Assembly: GCA_965223415.1 (NCBI GenBank)
Contig: OZ245002.1
Span: 2,688,001-2,752,000, forward strand
Reading direction: 5' to 3'
Length of the DNA: 64,000 bases
From: Myxococcota bacterium
GTDB taxonomy: Bacteria; Myxococcota_A; UBA9160; UBA6930
The position numbers were made by a program, and so were the translations under genes. The notes below the pieces were generated by a model. The model was not told the DNA's origin. It did no database searches and worked only from the letters and a program-made list of their open reading frames with translations. Positions within the stretch are counted from its first letter, which is position 1. Each line of letters starts with the position of its first letter. This document shows, piece by piece, positions 1 through 59,200 of the stretch.

Positions 1-1528
1 TGGTGAGGAGCCGCCGGTAGCTGCCCTCCCGGTCGGTGACGGCGATGGTCTCGTTCACGCCCTCCCGGGCCGCCAGCACCTCCTCGCCCGGGTTCAGCGG
101 CACCGTGCGCAGCATGAGCGAGCGGTCGGGAAGCTGCGCCCACACCACCGCGGCGGCGAGGCCCGCGGCCAGCGCGGCTCCCCGGATCCACGGAGCCCGG
201 GGCTCGCTGTCCCGCGCCGCGAGGGCCACGGCTCCGATGGCGACGAGCACGCTCCCCGCCACGAGCGTCGCCGTGTGCTGGATTCCGAGCAGGGGCAGCA
301 GCCAGAAGCCGGCGCCCAGCGAGCCGATCACGCCGCCCACGGTGTTGGAGAGATAGAGGATCCCCGCCCGCTCGCCGACCCGCTCGCTGGCGCGCTGCAC
401 GAGGGCATTCGCCAGCGGGAACGCCATCCCGGAGAGCAGCGCCGGCGGTCCCACCACCCAGGCGGTGCTGCGCAGCAGGTAGAGGGTGAAGGGCAGCGGC
501 CCGCCGACCGGATCGGCCAGGATGCGCTTCTGCACGTAGGTGGCGCTCGCGTCCACCGACCAGAGCGCCGCCAGTGCCCACACGACGAAGCCGCCCAGGG
601 CCACCGTGAAGATCGTGCCGGGTCGCCCAATGCGGCTCGTGAGGGCACCGCCGAGCATCGAGCCGATCCAGATGCCCAGCAGGATCACCGTGAGCAGGAT
701 CGAGAAGACCGGGCGGTAGCCGCCGAACAGCGAGATCAGGTGGCGGAACCACACGATCTGCATCGCCATCGCCGCGAAGCCACTGAGCCCGATCGCGAGG
801 CCCGCCCAAGCCACCCGCGGATCCCGCGCGCCGCTGCGGGGGGCGGGCGGCGGATCGCCCGGCGACGGCCCCGTCACCCGCCTCGCCAGCAGGAGCGCCC
901 CGGCCGCGGCAAACAGGTTCAGGCCGATCGCCAGGAGCTGGGTGCGCTGCAGGCCGAAGGCGGGCACGAAGGTCGTGTCGGTCAGCAGGCAGCCCAGCGC
1001 CGCGCCTGCCGTGTTGATGCCGTAGAGCACCCCGACGTGGCGCCCGGCCGAGCCCACGTCGTTGCCGACCAGGTGCCGGATCAGCAGGGTCAGGGTGCCG
1101 CCCATCAGCAGGGTGATGGGCGTCAGCAACAGCGCGGAGCAGCCGTAGCGGAACACGGAGCCGCCCAGCGAGAGGCGGAGCCAGCCCTTCTCGTCCGGAA
1201 CGTAGGAGGAGGCCCGGGCCGCGAGCTCCGCCACTTCCGGGATCGCCAGCAGGATCGCCCCGGCCAGGAGCGCGATTCCGAGCTCGAAGAGCCCGTAGGC
1301 GCGCACCGGTGCGGCCGGATGGGTGCGCACCCGCCGGTCGACCCACCGGCCCGCCAGGTAGCTCCCGAGGCCCAGTCCCAGCATGTAGATGCTGGTCACC
1401 AGGGCTGCCGAGTAGACCGTGCTGCCGAAGAGCAGCCCGAACTGCCGCACCCACACGACCTCGTAGACGAGCCCGCTCATCCCGGAGGCGAAGAACAGCA
1501 GATAGATGAGCGCGTGGAAGCCGGGCAT
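1..1528 (-). CDS. Fused membrane (MFS-like)/spermidine-synthase-like protein, N-terminal part; truncated at window edge
   Basis: Read manually from ATG at 1528: MPGFHALIYLLFFASGMSGLVYEVVWVRQFGLLFGSTVYS..., same N-terminal pattern as the paralogs at 12518 and 15627; absent from ORF track because it runs off the window. Confidence 0.8.
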   Translation of the reverse strand, partial: MPGFHALIYLLFFASGMSGLVYEVVWVRQFGLLFGSTVYSAALVTSIYMLGLGLGSYLAGRWVDRRVRTHPAAPVRAYGLFELGIALLAGAILLAIPEVAELAARASSYVPDEKGWLRLSLGGSVFRYGCSALLLTPITLLMGGTLTLLIRHLVGNDVGSAGRHVGVLYGINTAGAALGCLLTDTTFVPAFGLQRTQLLAIGLNLFAAAGALLLARRVTGPSPGDPPPAPRSGARDPRVAWAGLAIGLSGFAAMAMQIVWFRHLISLFGGYRPVFSILLTVILLGIWIGSMLGGALTSRIGRPGTIFTVALGGFVVWALAALWSVDASATYVQKRILADPVGGPLPFTLYLLRSTAWVVGPPALLSGMAFPLANALVQRASERVGERAGILYLSNTVGGVIGSLGAGFWLLPLLGIQHTATLVAGSVLVAIGAVALAARDSEPRAPWIRGAALAAGLAAAVVWAQLPDRSLMLRTVPLNPGEEVLAAREGVNETIAVTDREGSYRRLLT

Positions 1529-1612
1529 GGATCCGCAAGGGGGGGAGAGGGGACCCGACACTATACCGCTGCGCCGATTGGCACGGAACCAGAGGCCCGC
1601 GATGCTGCCGTC

Positions 1613-2584
1613 ATGGCCGGAGCCCGCTCTTCACTCGTCTTCGTCCTCCTGGGCCCGCTCCTGGCGAGCCTCGCGTGCGGCCGGGAGCCTGCCGCGGAAA
1701 CACCCGTCCCCGATCTCTCCCCGCGAGCGGCGGCGGTGCAACGAGGCACCGCCTGGCTCCTCGCCCACGCCCACGAGATGGAGCGCACCTGGGCCCTCTC
1801 GCTGTTCGAGGGGATGCAGCGCATTCGCACGGACCCGGAGCTGCGGGAGACCTGCCGACGAATCCTGGAGGAGCGCTCGCAGGCCCGCCTCACCCACCTC
1901 CCCGCCCGGCTCCCCGCAGTCGTGGCCGTGCATCCGGCCCGGCTGTTCGACGTGCTCGCCGAGCTGAAGCGCCGACGCCGCATGGGCGAGCCCTACGAGA
2001 AGTGGGTCGAGCAGCTCAGGGAGCTGCTCGCCGCCCACGGCGCCCGCGGCTGGCCCGACGTCTGGCTCACCCAGAAGCTCATCATGATCCACAGGCTCTC
2101 GGAGTTCGGCCTGTCGGCACCCGGCAGCTTCGAAGAGGTGCGCGAGGAGATCCGGACCCTCTGGAGGGAGGGCGACCCGGAGGCCCTCGTCCGCGACCGC
2201 AGCTTCATGTTCGCGCTCACCCACGTCTTCACCACGGCGTCGGGCTATTTCAGCCATTTCGTCGACCCGGCGGGCTTCGAGCCGGAGACGGCCATGCTTC
2301 GCCACGCCGTCGGCCACTACCTGACCGAGGGTGTCCCGGACGATCGCCGCTTCCTCGAGATCCAGGCCCAGGTCGTCTCGAGCCTTGCGCTCCAGCAGCT
2401 TCCCGAGGACGAGGCGGTGGAGGCCATGGTCCAGCGGCTCCTCGACGCGCAGAACCCGGACGGGAGCTGGGGCGAGGACGCCGGCCACCACCTGAAGCAC
2501 GCGACCTGGGTCGTGCTGAAGGCCCTCGTCGATCTGGAGCCCGCGCTCTCGGGCGTGCAGCCCTTCGCTCACTCCAGCCGGTAG
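1613..2584 (+). CDS. Putative lipoprotein with C-terminal prenyltransferase/squalene-cyclase-like QW repeat
   Basis: 3' part of ORF 275..2584; signal peptide ending LASLAC; LLDAQNPDGSWG motif. Confidence 0.6.
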   Translation: MAGARSSLVFVLLGPLLASLACGREPAAETPVPDLSPRAAAVQRGTAWLLAHAHEMERTWALSLFEGMQRIRTDPELRETCRRILEERSQARLTHLPARLPAVVAVHPARLFDVLAELKRRRRMGEPYEKWVEQLRELLAAHGARGWPDVWLTQKLIMIHRLSEFGLSAPGSFEEVREEIRTLWREGDPEALVRDRSFMFALTHVFTTASGYFSHFVDPAGFEPETAMLRHAVGHYLTEGVPDDRRFLEIQAQVVSSLALQQLPEDEAVEAMVQRLLDAQNPDGSWGEDAGHHLKHATWVVLKALVDLEPALSGVQPFAHSSR

Positions 2585-3606
2585 AGACGCCCGCCGCGGC
2601 TCGATCCCGCCCAGAGCCGCCCGCGGTGGACGGCCAGGCTCCCGGTGGCATTGCCGTTCGCTCGTCCTCCCGGAACGCGCACGATGCGGAAGGCCTCCGG
2701 CTCCGGCGGCGGCGCGACGAGCTCGAAGTGCTCGTGGTCCCGCGAGCCGTAGAGGCCGCGGCTCGTCAACGCGTAGAGGGCTCCGTCCAGCTCCGCGAGG
2801 TCCGAAACGAAGAGCCGCTCCATCCCGGGCACGGGGGTCCAGTGCTCCCCGTCGTCGCTGAGCAGCAGGTGCAGGCCCTGGGCGTCCCACACCGACCAGA
2901 AGAGTCGGCCCCGGGAGCTCGCGAACCAGCGGAAGGTATTCGCGGCGCCGGGACGCACGTCGTGGGAGCGGGGCGCCCTGGAGCCGACGTCGCCCGTCCA
3001 GCGGACGTAGTCGGCGGCCGGCCCGCTCTCGCTCACGGCCCCGAGCAACGAGCCCCGGTGCTGGACGAGGAAGGTCACGCGGGTGAGGGCCAGCGAGGCG
3101 CGCTCCGTCCAGGCGCCGCCCGCGAGCTCGGACAGCGCGGCCTCGTTGCCGAGCATGCCGCTGCTGGCCAGGAGACGGTCCTGGTGGTGCGTGACGTCGA
3201 AGGAGTGGAGCGCATCGGCGACCGGTAGTGCCCGGAAGCTCACGCCGTCCTCCGTCGTCCAGATCCGGCCGGGAGCCAGCCCCTGGGGATCGCCGTCGGG
3301 CGCGAAGAGACGGCCCTGGACGACTCGCACCCGGAGGAAGCCCTGGCTGTGCGGATCGTCCACCGGCGTCCGGTAGGAGCTCCCGTCCTCCGTCGACAGC
3401 AGGCGCGCTCCGTCGGCCTGGAGCGGATTCGCGGAGGTGGCGAGGTAGAGCCGGTCGCGGAAGCTGACCATGTCGCTCACTACCGCATGGCCCGGCGGGG
3501 CCTTCGCGGCCGCCACGAAGCGCAGCGGGCGAAGCGGCGGCCCGCCTTCCTCGGCACAGGCGGGAGACGAGAGCAGCAAGGCGATCAGCGCGAGGACCGG
3601 GCGCAT
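2569..3606 (-). CDS. Secreted beta-propeller (BNR/Asp-box-like) protein
   Basis: Signal peptide MRPVLALIALLLSSPACA; repeated motifs STEDGSSY, TTEDGVSF, SDDGEHW. Confidence 0.7.
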   Translation of the reverse strand: MRPVLALIALLLSSPACAEEGGPPLRPLRFVAAAKAPPGHAVVSDMVSFRDRLYLATSANPLQADGARLLSTEDGSSYRTPVDDPHSQGFLRVRVVQGRLFAPDGDPQGLAPGRIWTTEDGVSFRALPVADALHSFDVTHHQDRLLASSGMLGNEAALSELAGGAWTERASLALTRVTFLVQHRGSLLGAVSESGPAADYVRWTGDVGSRAPRSHDVRPGAANTFRWFASSRGRLFWSVWDAQGLHLLLSDDGEHWTPVPGMERLFVSDLAELDGALYALTSRGLYGSRDHEHFELVAPPPEPEAFRIVRVPGGRANGNATGSLAVHRGRLWAGSSRGGRLYRLE

Positions 3607-3643
3607 GGAGCCGAACGGTAGCGAGCCCCGGAAAGGTCGAGGG

Positions 3644-4441
3644 CTAGCTCCGGCGGCTGCGCCCCAGCCTGGCGAGCCCGACCAGACCCGCGCCCAGGAG
3701 GAGCAGCGTGCCCGGCTCGGGGGCCGAGGTGAAGCTCAGCGTCAGGCTCGTGGCGCCCGCGGTGCGGTTGCTCTGGGTCGAGCCGTTGCACGCGCCGGCC
3801 GGACCGCCCGCGCAGATCGCCGTGATGGTCGGCGACACGAGGGTGACTGAGCCCGCGCCACCGGCGGTCAGGCTGAAGCTGCCCATGAACGTGGCCGTAC
3901 CGAGCGCCACGGTCATGTTGGTGGCGGTGCCCGTGGTCGTCGTGGTGCCGAACTGTCCGGTCACCGTAACCGTGCCCGGCGTCCAGGCCAGGAACGTCGC
4001 GGTGACGTTCACGGCGCCGACCAGCGGGTTGCTGGTGCTGACGGTGGACGAGCCCGACACGCCCACGGAGAGCGGGATGGCCAGGAACAGCAGCGGGATG
4101 CCGACGAACAGGAACACGTTCACGAGGCCGGCGATGCCCTGGTTGGCTGCCGCGCCGTTCGGTGTCGCCGCGATCGTCTGGCTGCCACCCAGCGTCTGGG
4201 AGATGGTCAGCTGCGGCGGACCGGTGTTCACGGTGCTGAAGAACTGCGGCGTCACGCTGACGCCCACCGCGATGCTGCCGCCGGTCGAGCTGCCGGAGGC
4301 GACCAGGCTGCCCCCGCCGGTGGTCAGCGTGAAGGGCGCGCCCTGAAACGCGCCGTTCCAGGTCGCGGACGTCAGGGTGCCCGCCTGCGCCGTACCCGCG
4401 AGTAGTGCGAACGCCGCGGCGAGAGTGAGGATCCTGGGCAT
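3644..4441 (-). CDS. PEP-CTERM sorting-domain surface protein, copy A
   Basis: Signal peptide ending AQA; T/G/S/A-rich body; C-terminal APEPGTLLLLGAGLVGLARLGRSRRS; AAGGAG RBS. Confidence 0.92.
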   Translation of the reverse strand: MPRILTLAAAFALLAGTAQAGTLTSATWNGAFQGAPFTLTTGGGSLVASGSSTGGSIAVGVSVTPQFFSTVNTGPPQLTISQTLGGSQTIAATPNGAAANQGIAGLVNVFLFVGIPLLFLAIPLSVGVSGSSTVSTSNPLVGAVNVTATFLAWTPGTVTVTGQFGTTTTTGTATNMTVALGTATFMGSFSLTAGGAGSVTLVSPTITAICAGGPAGACNGSTQSNRTAGATSLTLSFTSAPEPGTLLLLGAGLVGLARLGRSRRS

Positions 4442-4511
4442 GATCAACGAAGCTCCTTGAAGGCCCCCTGGAGGGCCAGGCGCCGGGGCCGAACGGTAGC
4501 TACGAGCCCCG

Positions 4512-4552
4512 AAAAAGATCGAGGGGCGGCCACCTCTCGGCGACCGCCCCTC
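4512..4552 (-). terminator. Intrinsic terminator between the two PEP-CTERM genes
   Basis: Minus strand GAGGGGCGGTCGCC-GAGA-GGTGGCCGCCCCTC (14-bp stem with G-U pairs, GNRA loop) followed by GATCTTTTT. Confidence 0.75.
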
Positions 4553-4589
4553 TGTTCGATCTGTCCTCTTTAGGACGTGCGTTCGGAGC

Positions 4590-5390
4590 CTAGCTCCGGC
4601 GGCTGCGCCCCACCGCGGCGAGACCGACCAGGCCCGCGCCCAGAAGGAGCAGCGTGCCCGGCTCGGGAGCCGAGGTGAAGTTCAGCGTCAGGCTCGTGGC
4701 GCCCGCGGTGCGGTTGCTCTGGGTCGAGCCATCGCACGCGCCGGCCGGGCCGCCCGCGCAGATCGCCGTGATGGTCGGCGACACGAGGGTGACCGTGCCC
4801 GCGCCACCGGCGGTCAGGTTGAAGCTGCCCATGAACGTGGCCGTACCGAGCGCCACGGTCATGTTGGTGGCGGTGCCCGTGGTCGTCGTGGTGCCGAACT
4901 GTCCGGTCACCGTAACCGTGCCCGGCGTCCAGGCCAGGAACGTCGCGGTGACGTTCACGGCGCCGACCAGCGGGTTGCTGGTGCTGACGATGGACGAGCC
5001 CGACACGCCCACGGAGAGCGGGATGGCCAGGAACAGCAGCGGGATGCCGACGAACAGGAACACGTTCACGAGGCCGGCGATGCCCTGGTTGGCCGCCGCG
5101 CCGTTCGGTGTCGCCACGATCGTCTGGCTGCCACCCAGCGTCTGGGAGATCGTCAGCTGCGGAGGACCGGTGTTCACGGTCGAGAAGCTTGCGCCACTGA
5201 CCACGGTGACCGCAACGTTGGCGCTTCCGCCAGTGCTGGTGCCGGAGGCGGCCAGGCTGCCACCACCGGTCGTGAGGGTGAACGGCGTGCCCTGGAACGC
5301 ACCGTTCCAGGTCGCGGACGTCAGCGTGCCCGCCTGCGCCGTTCCGGCGAACAACATGAACGCCGCCGCGAGAGTGAGAATCTTGCGCAT
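4590..5390 (-). CDS. PEP-CTERM sorting-domain surface protein, copy B
   Basis: Near-identical paralog of copy A; C-terminal APEPGTLLLLGAGLVGLAAVGRSRRS. Confidence 0.92.
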   Translation of the reverse strand: MRKILTLAAAFMLFAGTAQAGTLTSATWNGAFQGTPFTLTTGGGSLAASGTSTGGSANVAVTVVSGASFSTVNTGPPQLTISQTLGGSQTIVATPNGAAANQGIAGLVNVFLFVGIPLLFLAIPLSVGVSGSSIVSTSNPLVGAVNVTATFLAWTPGTVTVTGQFGTTTTTGTATNMTVALGTATFMGSFNLTAGGAGTVTLVSPTITAICAGGPAGACDGSTQSNRTAGATSLTLNFTSAPEPGTLLLLGAGLVGLAAVGRSRRS

Positions 5391-5510
5391 GATCTACGAA
5401 GCTCCTTGAAGGGTCGGTCCCGACTCGGCTCCGGCTGTGGGGAGCGATCCAACTCGCACCCTCAGCGGCACCCTGCCACCCGGCTCCTCGCGCGGGACAG
5501 CCGGCTTATG

Positions 5511-5526
5511 TGCAAGCCGGATGCCA
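5511..5526 (-). promoter_or_regulatory. Sigma54 (-24/-12) promoter of PEP-CTERM copy B
   Basis: Minus strand TGGCATCCGGCTTGCA matches TGGCAC-N5-TTGCW with exact GG-N10-GC spacing, about 120 bp upstream of the ATG. Confidence 0.8.
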
Positions 5527-5850
5527 CTGGGTCTCGCGCTGGGGCGAATGGCTCAACTCTCTGGAATTCAATGACTTTCTCCCTTTCCGCGGAAGCGGTG
5601 GGCCGGTCAGCGGGGGCTCCGCGGAAGGAAGTTTCTTTCCTCGGAGGAAAAGCACTGCCCTCGAATCCCCGCATTCAATCCCCGCGGGGCCTTCCGCGTC
5701 ACCGGAACCCCTCGAAGGCCCACTCCCCTCCCAATGGGAGCTCTGGATACCGGCTGGTCAGGCCGGGGCGTGTGGGTAGACTGTCGGGTCCTCTCGGGCC
5801 CGCGTCCCGGACGGACGGTCCCAGGACGTACGCCAGTGAGGAGGTTCGCC

Positions 5851-8271
5851 ATGTTCCGCAAGACAAGGCAGGGAGCCCGCCGTCCCTGCGCAGGAGCCCT
5901 CGGCCTGGCCGTCCTGCTCTTGCTGAGCGCCTGCCAGCAGAGTCAGGAGGCCCTCTACGACGAGGCCCAGGCGCTCATCGCGGAAGGCAAGCCCGAAGAC
6001 GGGCTCACGGTCCTGCGCGAGGCCGCCGCCCTCGACCCGGACGACGGCGAGATCCAGTTCGCCATCGGGATGACCCTTCTCCGGCTGGGCCGGACGAGCG
6101 AGGCGCTCTTCCCCCTCTCGAAGGCAGTGGAGACCGAGGAGTACGGCGTGCAGGCCGGCGTCGTCATGGCCAGCACCCTGGCGGAGGGTCGGAACTTCGA
6201 GGAGTCGATCGCCGCCGCCGACCGCGTGCTGGAGCGCAGCCCCGAGGACGTCGCCGCCCTCGCCATCCGGGCGAACGCGGCCATCGGCCTGCACCAGGGA
6301 GAGCTCGCACTCGATTCGGTCGATCGCCTGCTCGCGATCGAGCCGGGATCGGTCCCCTACCGCCACCTCAAGGCGAGCGCGCTCGGAGAGGCCCAGCGCC
6401 TGGACGACGCGGAGGCGCTGTTCCTCGAGCTGATGGAGATCGAGACGGAAGAGGATCCCGGCGGCCCGGCCCGGGCGTGCGGATCCCTCGCAAAGATGCT
6501 CATCGACCACAAGGAGACGGACCGGGCGGTCGAACGCCTGAAGCTGTGTGAGGAGAAGTACGTCACCCAGCCCAACGTGGCCCTCGCCCTGGTCAGCCTG
6601 TACGACGAGATGGGCCAGAAGGACGAGGCCATCGAGCTGCTGCAACGGACCAGCGAGAAGAAGCCCGACGACCCGAACGTGGTGAACGCCTTGGGCCACC
6701 GCCTGCTCGCCGCGGACCGATTCGACGAGGCCGAAGCACTGGCCAGCGAGGGCCTCGAGAAGGGCACCAACCCGGCCCGTTGGGCGGCGCTCTCGTCGGT
6801 GCGCAAGGCCGCGGGCAACGCCGACGGCGCCCTCGAAGCCATCGAGGAAGCGATCACGCTCAGCGATCCGCCGGACCAGGAGTACCTGTTCTCCCGGGCG
6901 GACCTCCTGATCAGCCTCGGCCGCGTCGACGAGGCGCAAGGCGTTCGCGAGCAGCTGACCGAGACGCTCTACCGCGACACGATCGACGGCCGACTCGCCC
7001 AGGAGGCCGGCGACAACGCCCGCGCCCTGGAGATCTACTCCGACGTGCTGGCGCACTGGCCCCAGAACGTGGGCGTGCGAGTGCTGGCGGCGCTGGCGGC
7101 GCTGGAAGAGGGCGACCGGGAGCAGGCCAAATCCCAGCTCCTCGAAGCGACCCGCCAGGCGCCCACGGAGAGCGATGCGGCCATCTGGCTGGCGCGCCTC
7201 CACTTCGCCGAAGGCGACTACGCCCAGGCGGCCTACTTCGCCACCCGACAGATCGCCGAGCGCGGGCCGACCCATCCGGACGCCTACCTGCTCGCGGCCC
7301 GTGCCTTCCGGCGCCTCGGCAAGCCGGAGCGGGTCAAGGGCTCCCTCGGCGCCATGGCCCTGGCCCGCGACGGGCTGTTCGCCGCGGAGAGCATCGCCGA
7401 GGTGATCCGATTCACCTCCGCCACCGAGGGACCGGACGGAGCGCTCGGTCGGCTCGACGAGATGGTCGAGAAGGCCGGCCTCGACTACGCCTCGCCGGAA
7501 ACCGAGCCGGCGCTGATCCAGCGGTTCCAGCTGTTGGCCGACGCGGGCCAGCTCGACGAGGCCACCCGGCGCGGCGAGGCGCTGATTGCGGCGCACCCGG
7601 AGCGGCCGACCCTGCACATGCTCCTGGGCCGGATCGGCCTGCTGAAGGGAGATGCGGAAACGGCGGGTCAGGCCTTCGAGCGGGCCCTCGAGCTCGACCC
7701 GGAGCACGCGGGCTCCCTCGCCGGGAAGGCGCTGCTCCAGCGCGCGGCCGGCGACCCGGCGGCCGCCGACACCATGGACCGGGCCTGGCAGCTCTCCCAG
7801 CATCAGGACTATGGCTACATGGCGGCGCGCATGCGCCTCGACCTGGGCCAGCGCGAAGAGGCCCGCGAGCGCTTCCTCGACCTGCTGATCCTGCACCCGG
7901 ACCAGGCCGCGGGGGCGAACGACCTGGCCTTCCTGCTCGCCGAGGACGGTACCGAGCTCGACCGGGCCCTCGAGCTCGCGCGACTGGCCCTGCGCCTCGC
8001 CCCCTCGCCCGAGGCCCTCGACACGCTGGGCTTCGTGCAGCTGAAGCGCGACGAGCTCGACGCCGCCATCGGCTCCTTCCGCCGGGCCATCGACCGTGGT
8101 CCCGAGTACGCGACCGCCCGCTACCACCTCGCGCTCGCCCTGCACGAGGCCGGCCGCAGCGAGGAGGCCCGCGAAGCCCTGGAGACGGCGCTGGAGACGG
8201 CGTTCCCGGAGGCCGAGCAGGCCCGGGCGCTGCTGGCGCGGCTCGAGGGTGGCGGCGGAACCGTCCAGTAG
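5851..8271 (+). CDS. TPR-repeat lipoprotein (PrsT-like)
   Basis: GAGGAGG RBS; lipobox LLLSAC; TPR repeats throughout; C-terminal ANDLAFLLAE...ALDTLGFV. Confidence 0.85.
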   Translation: MFRKTRQGARRPCAGALGLAVLLLLSACQQSQEALYDEAQALIAEGKPEDGLTVLREAAALDPDDGEIQFAIGMTLLRLGRTSEALFPLSKAVETEEYGVQAGVVMASTLAEGRNFEESIAAADRVLERSPEDVAALAIRANAAIGLHQGELALDSVDRLLAIEPGSVPYRHLKASALGEAQRLDDAEALFLELMEIETEEDPGGPARACGSLAKMLIDHKETDRAVERLKLCEEKYVTQPNVALALVSLYDEMGQKDEAIELLQRTSEKKPDDPNVVNALGHRLLAADRFDEAEALASEGLEKGTNPARWAALSSVRKAAGNADGALEAIEEAITLSDPPDQEYLFSRADLLISLGRVDEAQGVREQLTETLYRDTIDGRLAQEAGDNARALEIYSDVLAHWPQNVGVRVLAALAALEEGDREQAKSQLLEATRQAPTESDAAIWLARLHFAEGDYAQAAYFATRQIAERGPTHPDAYLLAARAFRRLGKPERVKGSLGAMALARDGLFAAESIAEVIRFTSATEGPDGALGRLDEMVEKAGLDYASPETEPALIQRFQLLADAGQLDEATRRGEALIAAHPERPTLHMLLGRIGLLKGDAETAGQAFERALELDPEHAGSLAGKALLQRAAGDPAAADTMDRAWQLSQHQDYGYMAARMRLDLGQREEARERFLDLLILHPDQAAGANDLAFLLAEDGTELDRALELARLALRLAPSPEALDTLGFVQLKRDELDAAIGSFRRAIDRGPEYATARYHLALALHEAGRSEEAREALETALETAFPEAEQARALLARLEGGGGTVQ

Positions 8272-8340
8272 CGGGCTGACCGCGACACTGCTCACGCGCC
8301 CCTCGCAACCCACGGGGCGCGCATCCTGGAGAACGTTGAC

Positions 8341-10848: not shown

Positions 10849-10850
10849 CC

Positions 10851-12521: not shown

Positions 12522-15500
12522 GCGGCCCGCCGCGCGCCGGGGAGGCGGCCGGCCGTCACTCCGTGGACTGGCGCTTCGGCGGCGTGCTCGCCTGCTTCGT
12601 GCTGAGCGGCTTCGCGGGCCTGCTCTATCAGACCGCGTGGACCCGCCAGTTCTCCTTCGCCTTCGGCACCTCGAGCCTGGCCGTGGCGACTGTGCTGGCC
12701 GCCTACATGGGCGGGCTCGCGGCCGGGGCCGCCCTCGCGGCCCGCTTCCTCCCCCGCGTGAGGCGACCGCTCCTCACCTATGGCCTGCTGGAGGGCGGCG
12801 TCGCCCTGGCCGCCCTGGGCGTGCCTTTCGCGGTGGAAGCCGCGGGCGACCTGCGAGCCGCCTGGCTCGGCGGCGGCCCGATCCCCTCGGAAGGCGGCGT
12901 CGGCGCGGCCGGCTTCTACCTCTTCGTCTCCTTCCTCGTGCTGTGCATCCCCACGGCACTGATGGGCGCGACCCTTCCGCTGCTCACGCGCCACGCGGTC
13001 CACAACGAGGCCCAGATCGGGCCGCGGATCGGCGCCCTCTACACCACGAACACGCTGGGCGCCGTCGCCGGCACCCTCGCGACCGCCTTCGTCCTGCTGC
13101 CGGCCCTCGGTCTCGGCGGGACGATCCGCGTCGGCGTGGCCACGAACGCCCTGGTGCTGCTGGTGGCCTGGGCGCTGGCCCGCGGCAGCGCGCCGACGAC
13201 CGAGCCGGCACCCGCGGCGGAGCCTGCCGTGCACCCGATCGCCGCGCGGGGCGGCGCCTTCCTGGCCATCGCCTTCGGCGCCGGGGTCGCTTCGTTCACC
13301 TTCGAGGTGCTGTGGACGCGGCTGCTCGAGCACGTGCTCGGGGGGAGCGTCTTCGCCTTCGCCACGATGCTGGCGAGCTTCCTGGTCGGCATCGCCCTCG
13401 GCGCCGCCGTCGCGGCGCGGCTGGCGACGAGCCCGGGGCGCGCGGCCGCCGGCCTGGCCTTCTCCCAGGTGGGCGCCGGCGTGCTGGCCCTCGCCGCCTA
13501 CGTGATGGCCCAGGGCCTTCCGGAGCTCGCGGCCGGGCTGGGCGAAGCGAGCCCCCTGCGACGGCTCCTCACCCTCTCCCTCTACGGCGGCGCCATGCTG
13601 CTGCCCTCGGCCCTGTGCATCGGCGCGACCTTCCCGTTCGTCGTGCGCGCCATCGTGCGCGGTCCCGAGGATTCCGGCGGCGCCAGCGCACGCGTCTACG
13701 CCTGGAACACCTTGGGCGCGATCGTGGGATCCGTCGGCGCGGGCTTCGTCATCATCCCGTGGCTGGGCTACGAGGGAACCCTGCGGGCGACGGTGCTACT
13801 GAACGTGGCCCTCGGCGCCGGCGCGGCCCTGTTCGCGCGCCCGCCCTCGCGAAGCGCCCTGGCCGTAGCCTCGGCGAGCCTGCTCGCCCTCGCGTGGGTG
13901 GCTCCGTCGCCTCCCTGGACCCTGCTGCGCAGCCGGGCCGGTGGGGGCGTGGAGGAGGCTGCCGACGAGGTGCTCTACTACGGCGTCGGACGCGGCGGCA
14001 CGGTGCTGCTCACGCGCCGCGACCGGATCTTCCGACTCTGGACGAACGGGCTACCCGAAGCCGGCGTCGGCATGCACGGCCAGCGGCCGGGAATCGGGCT
14101 CACCGCCCGCTGGCTCGGCGCGCTCCCCGCGCTGCGGCCCGGCGGCTCGAAGCACCTGCTGGTCGTGGGCCTCGGGGGCGGGACCGCGGTGGAGAGCGTG
14201 CCGCCCTCGGTCGAGCAGGTGGAGGTGATCGAGATCGAGGAGGAGGTCGTCGCCGCCAATCGGGCCATTGCGAACCGGCGCGCCCACGACCCCCTCGCGG
14301 ACCCGCGGGTGGCGGTCCGGGTGAACGACGCCCGCGGTGCGCTCCGACTCACCGGCGACCGCTTCGACGCCATCGTTTCCCAGCCCTCCCATCCGTGGAC
14401 GGCGGGCGCCTCCCATCTCTATACCCGGGAGTTCTTCGAGCTCGTGAAGAGCCGGCTCGAGCCCGGCGGCGTGTTCGTGCAGTGGATCGGCCTGGGCTTC
14501 GCGGACGAGCCCCTGCTGCGCAGCCTCGCCGCGACGCTGGGCGGCTCCTTTGCCCACGTCCGCGCCTACCAGCCGAACCCGGCGGGCCTGCTCTTCCTGG
14601 CTTCGAACGAGCCGCTGGCCGACCGGGCCGAGGAGGCGCGGCGGATCGCCGCCGACGCCGCGGCCTTCGCCGAGCTGGGGGTGCGGGGGGTCGAGGACCT
14701 GATCGCCCTCCAGGCCCTGGACGAGCGCGGGGTCGCCCTGCTCGGCGCCGGCGCTCCCCTGATCCGCGACGACCACAACCTGTTCGCCACCCGCTCCCCC
14801 TTCCTGGTCCGCAAGGACGCGGCCGCGGACTCCCGGCGCGTGCTCGCCGAGTACGACCCGCTGCGGGGCAGCGGAGAGGACGTGGACCTCGTCTCCATGA
14901 TCCGCCGGCTCGCCACCATGGGCCAGCGGGAGCGAGCCAAGCGCCTCGCCGGGCGCGTCCGGGGCGAGACCGAGCGCATCGTCCTGAGTGGCGAGCTGCA
15001 CCTCCGCGCCGGGCGGGAGCACAAGATGGTCTCCGCCTGGCGGCGCGCCCTCGGGCGGGACCCGGGCCTCGAGACCCCCCGCTACCGGCTGGCGGAGCAC
15101 CGGACCCTGGCGGGGGAAGCCGTCGAGGAGGCCTTCCTCGAGCCCCTGAGTGCGCCGGCCCGCGCGGTCGTCCGGGGCCTGGCCCTGCGCCGGGACGGCC
15201 GTTGGGAGGAGCTCGCGGCCCTGGAGCCGGCGCTCTCCCGGGTGGACTACCGGCACGCGGCCCGCGACGGCGCCGTGGCCCTGCGCGCCGAGTGGCGCCT
15301 CCACAGGGACGATCCCGCGCTCGCCCGGGAGGCTCTGGCCGTCGTGGACGCGGACGCCTTCGGCTGGCCTCCCGCCCGATTGCTGCTGCGCGCCCGTGCC
15401 GCCCTCGCGGCGGAGCGCTTCGACGTCGCCATTTCGACCCTGCACGACATCATCGGCCTGTCCCGGGGCCGCGCCGGCCGTCTGAGCGAGGTCGCGGACG

Positions 15501-15622
15501 GCGCGCTCCGGGTGCTCGCCGCCATCCCGCGTAGCGAGCTCGCGGACACCCAGCGGGACGACCTGCGGGTCGCGCTGCGGCGTCTGGCGGGAACCCAGCG
15601 GTCCGGTCGGTCGGGAGGTTAG
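12518..15622 (+). CDS. Fused membrane (MFS-like)/spermidine-synthase-like SAM-binding protein
   Basis: ATGA overlap with upstream gene; multi-TM N-terminus; VVGLGGG, VIEIE, NDAR, SQPSHPW, LYTREFF. Confidence 0.85.
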   Translation: MSGPPRAGEAAGRHSVDWRFGGVLACFVLSGFAGLLYQTAWTRQFSFAFGTSSLAVATVLAAYMGGLAAGAALAARFLPRVRRPLLTYGLLEGGVALAALGVPFAVEAAGDLRAAWLGGGPIPSEGGVGAAGFYLFVSFLVLCIPTALMGATLPLLTRHAVHNEAQIGPRIGALYTTNTLGAVAGTLATAFVLLPALGLGGTIRVGVATNALVLLVAWALARGSAPTTEPAPAAEPAVHPIAARGGAFLAIAFGAGVASFTFEVLWTRLLEHVLGGSVFAFATMLASFLVGIALGAAVAARLATSPGRAAAGLAFSQVGAGVLALAAYVMAQGLPELAAGLGEASPLRRLLTLSLYGGAMLLPSALCIGATFPFVVRAIVRGPEDSGGASARVYAWNTLGAIVGSVGAGFVIIPWLGYEGTLRATVLLNVALGAGAALFARPPSRSALAVASASLLALAWVAPSPPWTLLRSRAGGGVEEAADEVLYYGVGRGGTVLLTRRDRIFRLWTNGLPEAGVGMHGQRPGIGLTARWLGALPALRPGGSKHLLVVGLGGGTAVESVPPSVEQVEVIEIEEEVVAANRAIANRRAHDPLADPRVAVRVNDARGALRLTGDRFDAIVSQPSHPWTAGASHLYTREFFELVKSRLEPGGVFVQWIGLGFADEPLLRSLAATLGGSFAHVRAYQPNPAGLLFLASNEPLADRAEEARRIAADAAAFAELGVRGVEDLIALQALDERGVALLGAGAPLIRDDHNLFATRSPFLVRKDAAADSRRVLAEYDPLRGSGEDVDLVSMIRRLATMGQRERAKRLAGRVRGETERIVLSGELHLRAGREHKMVSAWRRALGRDPGLETPRYRLAEHRTLAGEAVEEAFLEPLSAPARAVVRGLALRRDGRWEELAALEPALSRVDYRHAARDGAVALRAEWRLHRDDPALAREALAVVDADAFGWPPARLLLRARAALAAERFDVAISTLHDIIGLSRGRAGRLSEVADGALRVLAAIPRSELADTQRDDLRVALRRLAGTQRSGRSGG

Positions 15623-15626
15623 GCGG

Positions 15627-18416
15627 GTGCCGAGCCGGGTCGCGATCGCCGCCCTGTCGGCGGTGTTCTTCGTCTCCGGAGCGGCCGCGCTGATCTTCGA
15701 GAGCCTGTGGTTCCGCCAGGCCGGCCTCGCCTTCGGCAACAGCGTGTGGGCTTCGACGCTCGTGCTCTCGAGCTTCATGGCGGGGCTCGCCGCCGGGAAT
15801 GCCCTGGCGGTGCGTCGGGGTGACGCGATCCGCCACCCGGTGCGCTTCTACGCCGTCCTCGAGGTGACCGTCGCCCTGAGCGGCGCCCTGCTCGTCTTCG
15901 TGCTGCCGGACCTGGGCCGGGCCCTGGCACCGATACTCGGAACCCTGGACGACCAGCCGTTCCTGCTGAACGCCATCCGCTTCGGGCTGGGCTTCCTGCT
16001 GCTGGTGGCGCCGGCCACCGCGATGGGAGTGACCCTCCCGGTGCTGGTGAAGGCCCTGCGGGTCTGGGACCCGGACTTCGGCGCGGTGCTCGGACGCCTC
16101 TACGGCTTCAACACCCTGGGCGCGGTGCTCGGCGCCCTGGCGGCGGAGACCGTGCTGACCCGCTGGCTCGGCGTGCGCGGCACCTCCCTGGCGGCGGCGG
16201 GCCTGTACCTGGCGGCGGCGGCGGTGGCGCTCGCGATCCACCGGGCCTTCGCCACGCGCGGCGCGGCGCCGGCCGCCGGGCCGGGGACGGCGCCGGCGTC
16301 CGGAGCCGGCAGCCGGCTGCGCGCGGGGGCGCTGGCGGCGTCCAGCTTCCTGGCGGGCTTCGCGCTGCTGGCCTTCGAGGTGGTCTGGTTCCGCTTCGTG
16401 CGGCTCTTCATCGACCCGAACCCGCGGGCCTTCTCCCTGATGCTGGCCGTCGTGCTCTCGGGCATCGGCCTGGGCGGCTTCCTGGCGGGCCTCGTCCTGC
16501 GGCGCTTCCCGCGAGCCGACCGCCACGCAGCGGCCCTGGCCTGTGCGAGCGGAGCGATCGCGGTCCTGCTGTACGCGAGCTTCGACCGCGCGTTGGCCCC
16601 CTACGAGCAGGTCTACATCCAGGGAGTGAGCGGCGTCCTCTGGCTCTCGACGCTCCTGATGCTGCCGGTGTCGGTGCTCTCGGGCGTGCTCTTCACCTTC
16701 ACCGGCTCGGCCCTGCACCGGGAGGTCGAGAGCGACGTCGGCGCCACGGGCCTCTTGGCCTTCGCGAACACCGTGGGCGGCATGCTGGGGTCCATCGCCG
16801 GCGCGTTCCTTCTGCTCCCCTTTCTCGGCATGGAGGGCTCCTTCTTCGTGTTGGGCGCCAGCTACGCCCTGGTGGCAGCGCTCCTGCTGGCGGCACGCAG
16901 CAGCGGCTCCGCCCTCTGGGTCCACGGTCTGCGCGGCGTAGCGGCGGCCGGGCTCGCGGCAGCGCTCCTGGCCTTCCCCTTCGGGGCGATGCGCGACCAC
17001 TACCTGACGATCCTGGCCGGGCGCTACGGCTACCCGGACTACTCGACCATCGAAGGCGTGCGGGAGGGACGCTCGGAGACGGTGATGTACCTGCGCACCG
17101 AGAGCCCGAAGGAGCCCGCCTATCGCCGGCTGGTGACCGGATCGTTCAGCATGGCGTCGAACCAGGTGCTCGATCGGCGCTACATGAAGCTCTTCGTCTA
17201 CTGGCCCCTGGCGCTGCGGCCCCAGAGCGAGCGTGCGCTGCTCATCAGCTACGGCATCGGCAGCACCGCCAAGGCGCTCACGGACAGCGCGGGCCTCGAG
17301 CACATCGACGTGATCGACATCTCCCGCGAGGTGACGGAGATGAGCGATCTGGCCTTCGCGGAGACGAAGGGCCATCCGCTGCGCGATCCGCGGGTGGCGC
17401 TGCACATCGAGGATGGGCGCTACTTCCTGCAGGCCACCGAGCACCGCTACGACCTGATCACCAGCGAGCCGCCGCCGCCCAAGCACGCAGGGGTCGTGAA
17501 CCTCTACACCCGCGAGTACTTCCAGCTGATGCACGACCGGCTCGCCGAGGGAGGAATCAACACCTACTGGCTTCCGGTCCACCTGCTCCGGGGGGAGGAG
17601 ACCCGTGCGATCATCCGCGCCTACTGCGACGTCTTCGAGAACTGCTCGCTGTGGGGAGGCTTCGGCTACAGCTGGATGCTGGTCGGGACGAACGGGCCGC
17701 TCGGCGGCGTCTCGGAGGAAGCGTTCTCCGCCCAGTGGCGGGATCCGGCGGTGGTGGACGAGCTGCGCACCCTCGGCGTCGAGCTCCCGGAGCAGCTCGG
17801 CGCCCTGTTCATGGCCGACGCGCCCGCCCTGAACGCGATGACGGAAGGAACACCGCCGGTCACCGACGACTTCCCGAAGCGTCTCGGCGACGACGCCACC
17901 GTGCCCGAGGACTTCGCCTGGTATCTGAGCCTGATGCGGCCCGACGCGAATCGTCGGGCGTTCGCCCGGAGCGGGCTGATCCGCGAGGCCTGGCCCGCGG
18001 CCCTGCGCGAGCGGAGCCTCCCCTACTTCGCCTTCCAGGAGATGATCGACGTCCAGCTGGGCATGCGGCGCGAGCCCCTGCCGATCGACGAGCGGATCCC
18101 GCTCCTCCATCGCATCCAGCGGGACACCCCGCTCGAGACCCTCGTTCTCTGGCACCTGGGCGTCCTCAGCGGACGCGACGACCGCCCCGCTCCGGCCGCC
18201 CGCGCGGCCCTCGCCCTCGCCCGCCGCGACTTCCCCGCCGCCCGCGCTTACTACACCCAGGCCCTGCGCCTCTCTCCCGACGACACCGACTTCGCCCGCC
18301 TCGCCTCCTACGCCCTGTGCATGGAAGGCGGACTCGCCGCCCTCGGCCTGCCCCCCTCCCAGTGCAACGAGCTCCCCCGCCTGTCCGAACGCACGCAGGG
18401 GGGCGGACGTTCCTGA
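15627..18416 (+). CDS. Fused membrane (MFS-like)/spermidine-synthase-like SAM-binding protein
   Basis: Multi-TM N-terminus; ISYGIGST, VIDIS, EDGR, SEPPPP, NLYTREYF. Confidence 0.85.
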   Translation: MPSRVAIAALSAVFFVSGAAALIFESLWFRQAGLAFGNSVWASTLVLSSFMAGLAAGNALAVRRGDAIRHPVRFYAVLEVTVALSGALLVFVLPDLGRALAPILGTLDDQPFLLNAIRFGLGFLLLVAPATAMGVTLPVLVKALRVWDPDFGAVLGRLYGFNTLGAVLGALAAETVLTRWLGVRGTSLAAAGLYLAAAAVALAIHRAFATRGAAPAAGPGTAPASGAGSRLRAGALAASSFLAGFALLAFEVVWFRFVRLFIDPNPRAFSLMLAVVLSGIGLGGFLAGLVLRRFPRADRHAAALACASGAIAVLLYASFDRALAPYEQVYIQGVSGVLWLSTLLMLPVSVLSGVLFTFTGSALHREVESDVGATGLLAFANTVGGMLGSIAGAFLLLPFLGMEGSFFVLGASYALVAALLLAARSSGSALWVHGLRGVAAAGLAAALLAFPFGAMRDHYLTILAGRYGYPDYSTIEGVREGRSETVMYLRTESPKEPAYRRLVTGSFSMASNQVLDRRYMKLFVYWPLALRPQSERALLISYGIGSTAKALTDSAGLEHIDVIDISREVTEMSDLAFAETKGHPLRDPRVALHIEDGRYFLQATEHRYDLITSEPPPPKHAGVVNLYTREYFQLMHDRLAEGGINTYWLPVHLLRGEETRAIIRAYCDVFENCSLWGGFGYSWMLVGTNGPLGGVSEEAFSAQWRDPAVVDELRTLGVELPEQLGALFMADAPALNAMTEGTPPVTDDFPKRLGDDATVPEDFAWYLSLMRPDANRRAFARSGLIREAWPAALRERSLPYFAFQEMIDVQLGMRREPLPIDERIPLLHRIQRDTPLETLVLWHLGVLSGRDDRPAPAARAALALARRDFPAARAYYTQALRLSPDDTDFARLASYALCMEGGLAALGLPPSQCNELPRLSERTQGGGRS

Positions 18417-35829: not shown

Positions 35830-36549
35830 ATGAAACCGACGACGATCTTCATCCCTGCCTACCAGGCCGAGCAGACCATCGAGGCGGTGATCGAGCGCGT
35901 TCCCGAGGCGTTCTGGCCCTCGGTGTGCGAGGTGATCGTCATCAACGACGGCAGCCGGGACGACACCAGTGGCGCCGTCCGCCGCGCCGCCGAGCGCTTC
36001 CCGAAGGTACGGCTGGTCGAGGAGCCCGAGAACCACGGCTACGGCGCGGCCGTGCGCAAGGGCTTGCGGCTCTCCCTCGATACGCCGGCCGAGTACGTCG
36101 TGTGCCTGCACGCCGACGGCCAGTACCCGCCGGAGAAGATGCCCGCGTTCGTGCCCTACATGGCAGAGCACGGCATCGACGTGCTGCAGGGCTCGCGCCA
36201 CAAGGAGGGCACAGCGAGCCAGGGCGGCATGCCCTTCTACAAGGTGGTGGCCGGCCAGGTCCTCACGTGGATGGAGAACCGCACCTTCGACCTGGAGATG
36301 ACCGACTATCACTCCGGGTTCATGCTCTACAGCCGGAAGGCGGTGGAGAGCGTCCCCTTCGAGGAGCTCTCCTACTATTTCGACTTCGATCTCGAGGTGA
36401 TCGCCACCGCCCGGGCTCGGGGCCTGGTCGTGGGCGAGCTCGGCATCCCCACCCGCTATGCGGACGAAGAGAGCCACCTGAACCCGATCTGGTACGGCCT
36501 GCGCTGCCTCCGGGTGATGCTGCGCTACCGACTCGGCCGCTACGCCTAG
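35830..36549 (+). CDS. Glycosyltransferase family 2 (DPM1/ArnC-like)
   Basis: IPAY, INDGSRD, NHGYG, HADGQY, GSR, TDYHSG. Confidence 0.9.
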   Translation: MKPTTIFIPAYQAEQTIEAVIERVPEAFWPSVCEVIVINDGSRDDTSGAVRRAAERFPKVRLVEEPENHGYGAAVRKGLRLSLDTPAEYVVCLHADGQYPPEKMPAFVPYMAEHGIDVLQGSRHKEGTASQGGMPFYKVVAGQVLTWMENRTFDLEMTDYHSGFMLYSRKAVESVPFEELSYYFDFDLEVIATARARGLVVGELGIPTRYADEESHLNPIWYGLRCLRVMLRYRLGRYA

Positions 36550-36589
36550 CCGGCTCAAGCCCGGGCACCGCGCGGACGATCCGCTCCCC

Positions 36590-36919: not shown

Positions 36920-36922
36920 GGG

Positions 36923-47172: not shown

Positions 47173-47249
47173 AGAAACGGGGCCAGAGTTGAGAATTCAG
47201 TTACCCCCCTCCAGGGGGTAACTGAATTCTCAACTCTGGCCCCGTTTCT
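47173..47249. repeat. REP-like palindrome, family B (77 bp)
   Basis: 36-bp perfect arms AGAAACGGGGCCAGAGTTGAGAATTCAGTTACCCCC with 5-nt loop. Confidence 0.95.
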
Positions 47250-59161: not shown

Positions 59162-59200
59162 CCCCCACCCTCGCTCGCGCGAGCCGCTAACTTCCCGCGC

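Follow-up and report, generated by a model that had tools for sequence, protein, structure and literature searches.

We analyzed a 64,000-nt stretch of the genome of an uncultured Myxococcota bacterium (assembly GCA_965223415.1, contig OZ245002.1, positions 2,688,001 to 2,752,000), referred to as the window, whose own numbering is used below. At its left end lies a gene cluster in which two genes for PEP-CTERM proteins stand divergent from a run of genes for tetratricopeptide repeat (TPR) lipoproteins and membrane proteins. The cluster can firmly be regarded as an exosortase-cargo locus of the pepA-prsT kind, with a lead cargo gene driven by sigma-54, two PrsT-like lipoproteins and a conserved set of outward-facing enzymes. 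The host genome is one contig of 5.83 Mb and is 97% complete. Because the window has a G+C content of 72%, the real frames were chosen by G+C content at each codon position and by family matches. The features of the cluster are as follows.

Left of the window, minus strand: the rest of FusA, the propeller-like protein Prop2, the PEP-CTERM protein PEP3, a signal-anchored sulfatase-like protein, the sulfatase-like lipoprotein SulfTPR, and a fusion of a family 2 glycosyltransferase (GT2) with a methyltransferase.
2-1561, minus strand: FusA, first 520 aa of a 947-aa fusion protein matching NF037959; the remainder lies left of the window, and the full gene was read from the genome.
1613-2584, plus strand: LipoB, a 323-aa predicted lipoprotein with an ATG at 1613, a lipobox and coding-type G+C.
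2569-3606, minus strand: PropC, a 345-aa secreted protein or lipoprotein without a Pfam family, possibly a beta-propeller.
3644-4441, minus strand: PEPD, a 265-aa Thr/Ser/Gly-rich PEP-CTERM protein (PF07589), its ATG and ribosome-binding site read directly.
4521-4552, minus strand: a terminator-like hairpin with a T run just after PEPE.
4590-5390, minus strand: PEPE, a 266-aa PEP-CTERM protein (PF07589).
5512-5526, minus strand: a -24/-12 element of the sigma-54 type (TGGCAT-N5-TTGC), located upstream of PEPE at about 120-135 nt from its start.
5851-8271, plus strand: TPRF, an 806-aa PrsT-like TPR lipoprotein (TIGR02917 below cut-off), its start with a ribosome-binding site read directly.
8341-10848, plus strand: TPRG, a second PrsT-like TPR lipoprotein of 835 aa (TIGR02917 below cut-off).
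10851-12521, plus strand: H, a 556-aa polytopic membrane protein resembling GT-C glycosyltransferases (PMT_2 sub-threshold), with a C-terminal TPR region.
12518-15622, plus strand: FusI, a 1034-aa fusion of a major facilitator superfamily (MFS)-like and a SpeE-like part with a helical tail (NF037959, PF01564).
15627-18416, plus strand: FusJ, a 929-aa protein with an MFS-like part (13 helices), a SpeE-like part and a TPR-like tail (NF037959, PF01564).

All ten genes of the initial annotation lie at their places and on their strands, and its gene content, its tight plus-strand run and its start/stop overlap are borne out by the open reading frames (ORFs) and their translations, by family matches and by direct reading. 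The gaps in the run TPRF-TPRG-H-FusI-FusJ measure 69, 2, -4 and 4 nt, and the H stop overlaps the FusI start as ATGA. PEPE and TPRF diverge from a spacer of 460 nt. Lipoboxes or signal peptides are visible in the translations of TPRF, TPRG, SulfTPR, LipoB and PropC. At 18416 the right border holds, and beyond it come genes for a CoA-transferase, an enoyl-CoA hydratase and an EamA protein. The left border had been set at base 1, but the cluster continues for about 9 kb to the left, so that it spans about 27 kb in total (roughly window -9000 to 18416). Beyond this end lie an amidohydrolase gene and then unrelated metabolism genes.

PEPD and PEPE are PEP-CTERM proteins rich in Thr and Ser, as was first proposed. 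They score 24.7 and 25.6 bits against PF07589 (cut-off 20.7) and 19.4 and 20.1 bits against TIGR02595 (cut-off 16), and Thr and Ser together make up 29-30% of the mature proteins. Mature PEPE contains 2 charged residues and 2 Cys in 221 residues. PEPD is 91% identical to PEPE, and PEP3 is 84-85% identical to it. A search over 5.8 billion clusters, of which the 8000 best candidates were scored, revealed a small PEPE family of 84 proteins at E<=1e-5, all of them unnamed or termed 'PEP-CTERM', one being labelled Myxococcota. Of 40 family members, 15 match floc_PepA (NF033554), the model for PepA from floc-forming Betaproteobacteria, with E<=1e-3, the best at 5e-9, and those seen lie far below its cut-off of 80 bits. 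The family, for which no dedicated model exists, thus resembles PepA distantly.

The host genome carries about ten copies of the PEPE family, two of them apparently split over two frames, and one paralogue adjoins another Fus gene at 5.80 Mb. We notice that the paralogues at G000:C1:2305955-2306742 and 3713668-3714380 (G000 being the host genome) match in two frames each and look frameshifted or broken; the latter adjoins a short spermidine-synthase-like ORF at 3713134-3713487. In the whole genome, our home-made PEP-CTERM detector finds 35 ORFs (0.12 per 20 kb), against 23 Pfam matches.

The AlphaFold2 (AF2) model of PEPE, based on a 40-sequence alignment, is all-beta (pLDDT 86, pTM 0.80). Against the PDB, Foldseek found nothing similar to this model at E<=0.001, and the highest Z among 48,161 chains compared by VIA-align was 5.9, for small eight-stranded barrels. 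A fold cannot be named from so weak a match, nor does the result imply a novel one. A poly-Thr loop near residue 170 is an insertion, absent from the 31 aligned sequences not listed here; it occurs in own-genome sequences (P0001-P0004, P0006, P0007) and in one metagenome protein from a Logan assembly (P0005), and in a shorter form in P0074 and P0077.

Upstream of PEPE, the element TGGCAT-N5-TTGC is the sole match to the sigma-54 consensus with one mismatch in the 64-kb window. Looser matches with up to two mismatches are not enriched there (29 found, 45 expected); it is only the position and the quality of the single best site that count. This site scores 10/11 against an 11-position consensus. 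Of the 17 PEP-family genes examined, 4 are preceded by a site of at least 10/11: PEPE and, in each of the related genomes G021, G013 and G002, a single gene. Two of these sites are perfect. In nine further loci, such sites precede 5 of 18 PEP-CTERM ORFs, four of the five being the gene nearest TPRF. The genome background of such sites is 54 on both strands, or 0.002 per 430-nt window. The host genome contains rpoN and 24 NtrC-like activators at E<=1e-20. On the 3' side of PEPE, the hairpin has 14 pairs, of which 11 are G-C, followed by the T run. Among eight sequencing runs returned for the locus, none is an RNA run.

TPRF and TPRG had been described as a PrsT-like pair. Their lipoboxes, their adjacency and their rank as the best PrsT matches of the genome stand, while both fall below the curated cut-off. 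TPRF is the best of 61 matches to the PrsT profile (TIGR02917) in the host genome, none of which passes. Both proteins also weakly match PgaA and BcsC. The TPRF family is small, with 24 proteins at E<=1e-30 among 8000 scored. A Cys pair at TPRF residues 210 and 233 is invariant in 20 family sequences; it could form a disulfide, which would fit the periplasm. For one TPRF-like, three PEP-family and one FusJ-like protein, the longest contig listed measures 113,095 nt, and it is probably one and the same contig.

No exosortase is encoded in the window, as first stated, and the two exosortases of the genome lie at 4.71 Mb and 1.06 Mb (PF09721, 172.5 and 155 bits). Both pass the generic model TIGR02602. 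The named subtypes (XrtA, XrtW and others) were all rejected, their scores being below cut-off. The expectation that exosortases and PrsK/PrsR would be found elsewhere in the genome is thus half borne out, as no PrsK or PrsR match passes its cut-off, for which reason we rejected a canonical Prs regulatory trio. One exosortase gene stands 3 kb from a PEPE-family paralogue, beside an NtrC-type activator and two histidine kinases. Exosortase genes occur in 35 of 41 genomes (40 relatives and the host), and at 2.3 kb from an H homologue in G022 and at 6 kb from one in G032. Insertion sequence genes are seen near both host exosortase loci, an IS5-family transposase in G000:C1:4700000-4719999 and an IS21 helper ATPase in 1050000-1069000. 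Flanking the first exosortase gene are one gene of the NoeE-like sulfotransferase type and one resembling GH1 beta-glucosidases.

This arrangement recalls known systems. In Aquincola, pepA lies directly upstream of prsT and was found by experiment to be RpoN-dependent, prsT is needed for flocs, and PEP-CTERM proteins hold exopolysaccharide to the cell, according to the sections of PMC9850573 available to us. The available sections of an earlier survey describe single-gene PEP-CTERM operons with long spacers, sigma-54 sites and PrsT, and suggest that PrsT might guide a covalent modification (Haft 2006, PMC1569441). With the pepA-prsT/XrtA systems of Aquincola tertiaricarbonis and Zoogloea, our locus shares a small PEP-CTERM gene beside a large TPR lipoprotein gene, a single-gene cargo unit with a sigma-54 -24/-12 element, an exosortase encoded elsewhere and a faintly PepA-like cargo body. 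In contrast, it has two tandem TPR lipoproteins, both under the PrsT cut-off, and its genome has no PrsK or PrsR over cut-off and exosortases of the generic model only. The cluster contains no exopolysaccharide genes. It also contains Fus, GT-C-like and sulfatase-like genes, which are mentioned in the available sections of neither PMC1569441 nor PMC9850573; the word 'spermidine' does not appear in PMC1569441.

H, encoded in the tight run, was initially called a TMTC-like GT-C protein. TMTC/PMT_2-type GT-C enzymes combine a membrane domain with TPR and carry out protein O-mannosylation in animals. The H family comprises 204 representatives at E<=1e-30. Asp43 and Asp44 in the first outer loop of H are invariant in 38 sequences, and the following helices hold an invariant His, Glu and Lys. 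Aligning the H profile by hhalign with a profile of five same-genome PMT_2 proteins gave a probability of 75% and E 2.5e-5 over 146 columns, in which H residues 38-199 are aligned, the Asp-Asp falls on Asp-Glu and the conserved Lys is in place. Alignments with single PMT_2 proteins were insignificant (E 0.11 and 0.018). The C-terminal TPR region is recognized by TPR_14 in 11 of 38 members, and its profile matches consensus-TPR chains at E 1.7e-16. Searched against solved chains in the PDB, the single H sequence matched nothing at E<=10, and the family profile matched by its TPR tail alone, with no match for the membrane domain. Atlas look-alikes of H include TPR-tailed clusters and one protein named ArnT-like. 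H shares with TMTC/PMT_2-type GT-C enzymes the polytopic N-domain and the C-terminal TPR; its invariant Asp-Asp in the first outer loop may correspond to their acidic pair, given the profile-profile match to PMT_2 proteins over this loop and the next four helices. It differs from them in failing the PMT_2 gathering score. On sequence grounds the TMTC-like architecture, a membrane domain followed by TPR, is real; homology of H to GT-C enzymes is likely but not proven, and 'TMTC' denotes a resemblance.

FusA, FusI and FusJ had been read as three fusions of a membrane part with a spermidine-synthase-like part. All three pass the cut-off of 40 of NF037959, 'fused MFS/spermidine synthase' (FusI 124.3, FusJ 90.7 and FusA 53.5 bits), and that reading holds for the architecture, but the residues of an aminopropyltransferase are lost and no AdoMet decarboxylase is found. 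FusI and FusJ also pass PF01564 (50.9 and 52 bits, cut-off 22.9). FusA matches MFS_1 weakly at 25.2 bits, and some FusJ-family members carry MFS_1 and TPR Pfam matches. The AF2 model of FusJ (pLDDT 90.8, pTM 0.91) shows 6+6+1 membrane helices, a SpeE-fold domain that includes the N-terminal beta part, and a helical repeat tail. Each of its top 50 Foldseek matches is a spermidine or a thermospermine synthase (probability 1.00, E about 1e-8, TM of the target 0.6-0.7).

The 13 helices place the two ends of FusJ on opposite sides of the membrane. Lys and Arg number 19 on the N-terminal side and 11 on the other, with the same bias in 39 of 39 family members, and the N-termini of MFS proteins are cytoplasmic. 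On the helix count, the charge bias and the MFS precedent, the SpeE-like domain and the tail of the fusions probably face the periplasm. The 'SAM modification' (by S-adenosylmethionine) first proposed for the fusions is then not straightforward, because their catalytic domain would lie outside the cytoplasm. We also notice an invariant Cys pair at FusJ residues 667 and 673 (39 sequences from several phyla), which would fit a disulfide and the periplasm; FusA and FusI lack it.

In the FusJ family, the cofactor-binding glycines and the two acidic residues that bind ribose and adenine are invariant. The acid of the SpeE loop G-G-G-(D/E)-G, which selects decarboxylated SAM in SpeE, is replaced by Ile in FusJ (family consensus Val/Ile) and by Gly in FusI. 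Likewise, D-x-x-D-P of SpeE is replaced by E-P-P-P-P in FusJ, E-P-P-P-I in FusA (by reading) and Q-P-S-H-P in FusI. Twelve FusI orthologues retain the motif S-Q-P-S-H-P-W, four of them with a single substitution, and other Fus subtypes have fixed motif variants of their own, which argues for an altered function rather than decay. The AdoMet decarboxylase family PF02675 has no match at E<=0.01 in the host genome (its control was positive in 7 of 14 genomes), and PF01536 has none either, but here the control was silent too. Nor does the host genome hold a soluble SpeE, as all seven Spermine_synth matches are in fusion-sized frames of 769-1210 aa. The host organism may lack the classical spermidine pathway altogether. 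Compared with SpeE (PDB 1UIR, 1INL), the fusions share the fold, the Gly-rich loop and the two acidic cofactor-binding residues, and they differ in the replaced loop acid and D-x-x-D-P motif, the doubled membrane domain of 13 helices, the TPR-like tail, a catalytic domain predicted outside the cytoplasm and a host genome in which no SpeD is found.

The FusJ family is large, with at least 1720 proteins at E<=1e-20 conserved along the whole length, and FusJ-type genes were confirmed at 624 loci in species-representative genomes. The best 80 of these loci, at 42-64% identity, come from Myxococcota, Latescibacterota, Nitrospirota, Acidobacteriota, Gemmatimonadota, Gammaproteobacteria and others. 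Neighbors of the TPRF/TPRG, H or FusI type are seen in 3 of the 80 (L033, L051 and L066), all labelled delta proteobacterium or Myxococcota. A literature search found no experimental work on the fused MFS/spermidine synthase family, nor any link of it to PEP-CTERM.

Outside the tight run, the left extension encodes two sulfatase-like proteins. SulfTPR is an 836-aa lipoprotein whose one half is a PrsT-like TPR region (TIGR02917, 62.6 bits). Both proteins match Pfam Sulfatase and Phosphodiest, the second copy also with faint EptA matches, and both score about 113-120 bits against the arylsulfatase model, whose cut-off is 481. At the nucleophile position, reading of the sequences gives Thr in both (T-L-P-S-H in SulfTPR, T-K-S-S-M in the second copy), and neither has the C/S-x-P-x-R motif of formylglycine sulfatases. 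In the alkaline-phosphatase superfamily, phosphotransferases and phosphodiesterases typically use Thr or Ser as the nucleophile, and Thr-nucleophile enzymes of this fold are best known as lipid or glycan phosphotransferases (EptA, LtaS, BcsG). The proteins of the locus share with these the superfamily matches, the Thr at the nucleophile position and the extracytoplasmic location. Unlike EptA and LtaS, they are a soluble lipoprotein or a signal-anchored form and have no multi-helix membrane domain, and one copy differs from all three in its fusion to a PrsT-like TPR region.

The GT2 domain of the GT2-class I methyltransferase fusion weakly resembles dolichyl-phosphate hexose transferases (AglJ, 44.4 bits, far below cut-off), the kind of enzyme that feeds GT-C transferases. 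A stand-alone GT2 gene at window 35830-37414 is 35% identical to the GT2 half of this fusion; its best sub-threshold likeness is to polyprenyl-phosphate sugar synthases, and it is followed by two YbjQ-family genes and an ECF sigma factor gene.

PEPE, H and FusI served as queries against 40 genomes from the genus, family and order of the host, and a comparison of 32 of the relatives' regions by tblastn and the PEP-CTERM detector revealed that the arrangement is kept. Gene starts in the relatives are approximate, as ORFs were read from stop to stop. The counts that follow are lower bounds because many contigs are short, and they are not independent events because the genomes are kin. A TPRF-like gene followed in tandem by a TPRG-like gene is found in 12 relatives (G002, G009, G012, G013, G018, G020, G021, G022, G031, G034, G038 and G040) and in one named Myxococcota metagenome-assembled genome (L066), and TPRG in relatives always follows TPRF. 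One or two PEP-CTERM genes diverge from TPRF within about 1 kb in nine genomes (G009, G012, G013, G018, G020, G031, G034, G038 and L066). A FusI-type gene directly adjoins TPRG in eight genomes, and the block contains or adjoins H homologues in G012, G027, G031, G034, G038, G040 and L066. In most of the relatives' loci, the PEP genes have sulfatase-like genes beside them. With this, the gene-neighborhood survey suggested at the outset gave conserved synteny in at least 12 related genomes, and the possibility that there would be none can be dropped.

Several families of the taxonomic order share the arrangement PEP | TPRF-TPRG-Fus(-H) at a protein identity of only 30-50% and with differing flanking genes. 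Of 45 H matches (our own locus included), 11, spread over 9 of 24 genomes, stand within 1 kb of a Fus match, and 20 stand within 20 kb of one; a rough estimate of the chance rate of such adjacency is about 0.003 per site. Of the 45 PEP matches outside the host genome, 13, from 12 of 28 genomes, have a Fus or H match no more than 10 kb away; many of these PEP matches cover the C-terminal tail only, and one overlapping row on the opposite strand was left out. A profile of the PEPE body alone, lacking signal peptide and tail, matches 8 of the 18 PEP-CTERM ORFs in the loci (E 1e-13 to 2e-5), and the other 10 give no match. The body of the cargo thus appears to vary while the neighbor genes stay. 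In G028, TPRF is followed by SulfTPR and then by five PEP-CTERM genes in a row. These five tandem genes (G028:C25:150000-169999) stand between the SulfTPR-like gene and a second sulfatase-like gene, and 2 of the 5 match the PEPE body profile.

LipoB, previously noted as a QW-motif lipoprotein, is a real gene by its lipobox and its G+C content by codon position (0.75/0.47/0.92), while its match to SQHop_cyclase_C is weak and below cut-off (E 0.0018); the protein may bear a weak likeness to terpene-cyclase/prenyltransferase repeats. No LipoB homologue was found in the relatives' loci. The beta-propeller label once given to PropC stays a lead. PropC has no Pfam match, and it appears to be lineage-specific, with no tblastn match in the relatives' loci; its atlas look-alikes are hypothetical proteins, the weaker ones of which (scores 0.86-0.88) carry Kelch, Sortilin or BNR. 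Prop2, the second secreted propeller-like protein, belongs to no family.

Elsewhere in the window, we observed three further genes. A 1275-aa frame at 30357-34184 on the minus strand has a C-terminal adenylate/guanylate cyclase domain as its sole Pfam match, and its first approximately 1080 residues have no family. An 854-aa fused trehalose-6-phosphate synthase/phosphatase (Glyco_transf_20 and Trehalose_PPase) is encoded at 58874-61438 on the plus strand. A 504-aa NFACT-family protein, of the RqcH-like ribosome quality control kind, is encoded at 47249-48763 on the minus strand, adjoining a formamidopyrimidine-DNA glycosylase gene.

From the observed gene content, family matches, synteny, promoter motif, folds and loss of SpeE hallmark residues, we propose, with a probability of about 0.5, that the locus serves exosortase cargo and is specific to one lineage, an uncultured order of Myxococcota, and that enzymes recruited there by TPR decorate a periplasmic substrate. 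That the cargo is this substrate, that H glycosylates it and that the fusions alkylate it is what we infer. Four unrelated scaffolds at the locus carry TPR or TPR-like repeats (the GT-C-like protein, the MFS/SpeE-like fusions, the alkaline-phosphatase-fold proteins and the plain TPR lipoproteins), which suggests that all of them are drawn to the same target in the periplasm. The PEP-CTERM cargo would be the most economical choice, since the block accompanies PEP-CTERM genes irrespective of the body that these encode.

In the proposed mechanism, the small, uncharged, Thr/Ser/Gly-rich and predicted all-beta cargo proteins PEPE, PEPD and PEP3 would be exported by Sec and held by the PEP-CTERM helix at their C-terminus, and one of the two exosortases would release or attach them. 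The lead PEP gene would act as a single-gene unit under sigma-54, as pepA does in Aquincola. TPRF and TPRG are most likely adaptors for the cargo. The TPR parts of H, the fusions and the sulfatase-like proteins would bring these enzymes to the same periplasmic substrate, either the cargo or a polymer joined to it, which would be decorated before or during sorting by the exosortase. We speculate that H adds a sugar from a polyprenyl-phosphate donor, for which the GT2-methyltransferase fusion is a candidate maker, and that the fusions add an alkyl group of unspecified kind.

Several results weigh against this proposal. The likeness of the individual proteins to their namesakes is limited. TPRF and TPRG reach 244 and 156.5 bits against TIGR02917, whose cut-off is 312.2, and PEPE reaches 27.8 bits over its full length against floc_PepA, whose equivalog cut-off is 80. 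The best scores in the host genome are 430.5 bits for PrsR (cut-off 502.6) and 114.3 bits for PrsK (cut-off 300). H scores 18.9 bits against PMT_2 (E 0.0018; gathering score 26.1), and PMT_2 matches just 1 of 38 H-family members at E<=0.01. PEPD, PEP3 and most paralogues lack a sigma-54 site. For the fusions, the helix count and a charge bias of about 2:1 make up the whole case for a periplasmic topology, and a SAM-type domain in the periplasm would have no obvious cofactor supply. The gene context of the fusions also speaks against a dedicated role. A PEP-CTERM-like ORF lies within about 10 kb in 4 of the 80 FusJ-type loci, on which we rejected FusJ as a dedicated PEP-CTERM enzyme in general, a change from the dedicated pathway first proposed. 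No neighbor is conserved across these 80 loci, the commonest being sulfatase-like (9 of 80). Of the 41 genomes, 37 carry Fus, in as many as 9 copies, and 24 carry H, a distribution far wider than that of the cargo family. On these distributions, the FusJ type appears to be a general-purpose gene drawn into the locus by this lineage, and the FusI type a regular follower of TPRG.

The wide, multi-copy occurrence of Fus and H, together with FusJ-type genes that stand alone in other phyla, fits the main rival explanation, in which the accessory genes act on a polysaccharide, a lipid or an envelope glycan, the PEP-CTERM and accessory products are co-located and co-regulated components of a matrix, and the TPR parts serve as an export or assembly scaffold as in BcsC, PgaA and PelB. 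The weak matches of TPRF and TPRG to PgaA and BcsC point the same way, as do the lipid and glycan phosphotransferases among Thr-nucleophile enzymes and the faint EptA likeness of the second sulfatase-like protein. The exopolysaccharide-holding role of PEP-CTERM proteins, as given in the available sections of PMC9850573, would suit it too. However, in the 27-kb cluster we found no gene for a polysaccharide polymerase, a flippase or polysaccharide export, the block stays beside PEP-CTERM genes even where the cargo body is unrelated, and the divergence of PEP from TPRF recurs in nine genomes. We therefore regard this explanation as a possible one that is rather unlikely. A neighborhood devoid of functional meaning, with common multi-copy TPR, Fus and GT-C genes brought near PEP-CTERM genes by chance or shared descent, would agree with the kinship of the genomes, whose gene order may be inherited, with the copy number of Fus and with the 61 PrsT-profile matches in the host. 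It is hard to reconcile with a gene order kept at 30-50% identity while flanks and cargo body have changed, with the frequency of H-Fus adjacency relative to its rough chance rate, or with the tight spacing and start/stop overlap in the window, and it is the least probable of the readings considered here.

As for the chemistry of the fusions, they might be true polyamine enzymes, a membrane aminopropyltransferase making and exporting, or making at the surface, spermidine-like or long-chain polyamines that bind an anionic matrix, with an indirect link to PEP-CTERM. Their fold and their Pfam and NCBIfam matches are those of spermidine synthases, the MFS-like domain could export a polyamine, and the acidic residues that bind ribose and adenine are invariant. 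On the other hand, the loop acid that selects decarboxylated SAM is Ile/Val or Gly, and D-x-x-D-P is replaced in FusJ, FusA, FusI and 12 orthologues. Since these SpeE hallmarks are replaced and neither PF02675 nor a soluble SpeE was found in a single-contig genome of 97% completeness, canonical polyamine synthesis by the fusions is unlikely, and the polyamine explanation as a whole is very improbable.

A bolder form of our proposal, in which the enzymes decorate the exosortase cargo, can be drawn for the fusions. They may represent periplasmic alkyl-transferases of a new class, each supplying its own cofactor, with the MFS-like 12-helix domain exporting SAM or a derivative to the SpeE-fold domain held outside by the 13th helix, and the TPR tail selecting the substrate. 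Together with the TMTC-like GT-C protein and the Thr-nucleophile phosphotransferase-like lipoproteins, they would then form a periplasmic assembly line docked on the exosortase cargo by PrsT-like lipoproteins. We offer this picture as a speculation that is more likely wrong than right by a wide measure. If it is true, PrsT would be an adaptor for covalent modification of PEP-CTERM proteins.

PEP-CTERM/exosortase systems are widespread in bacteria of soil, sediment and sludge, and the role of PrsT in them has been open since 2006. For the step between export of the cargo by Sec and its cleavage by the exosortase, the locus offers a defined and conserved set of candidate partners, two PrsT-like lipoproteins and three kinds of TPR-tagged outward-facing enzymes. 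The FusJ family, with its 1720 or more proteins, carries the annotation 'spermidine synthase' throughout, though it lacks the residues that define this activity; if the periplasmic topology is true, the family would be mis-annotated at scale and would perform a rare SAM-type chemistry outside the cytoplasm. Our findings point to an undescribed processing step for exosortase-sorted surface proteins.

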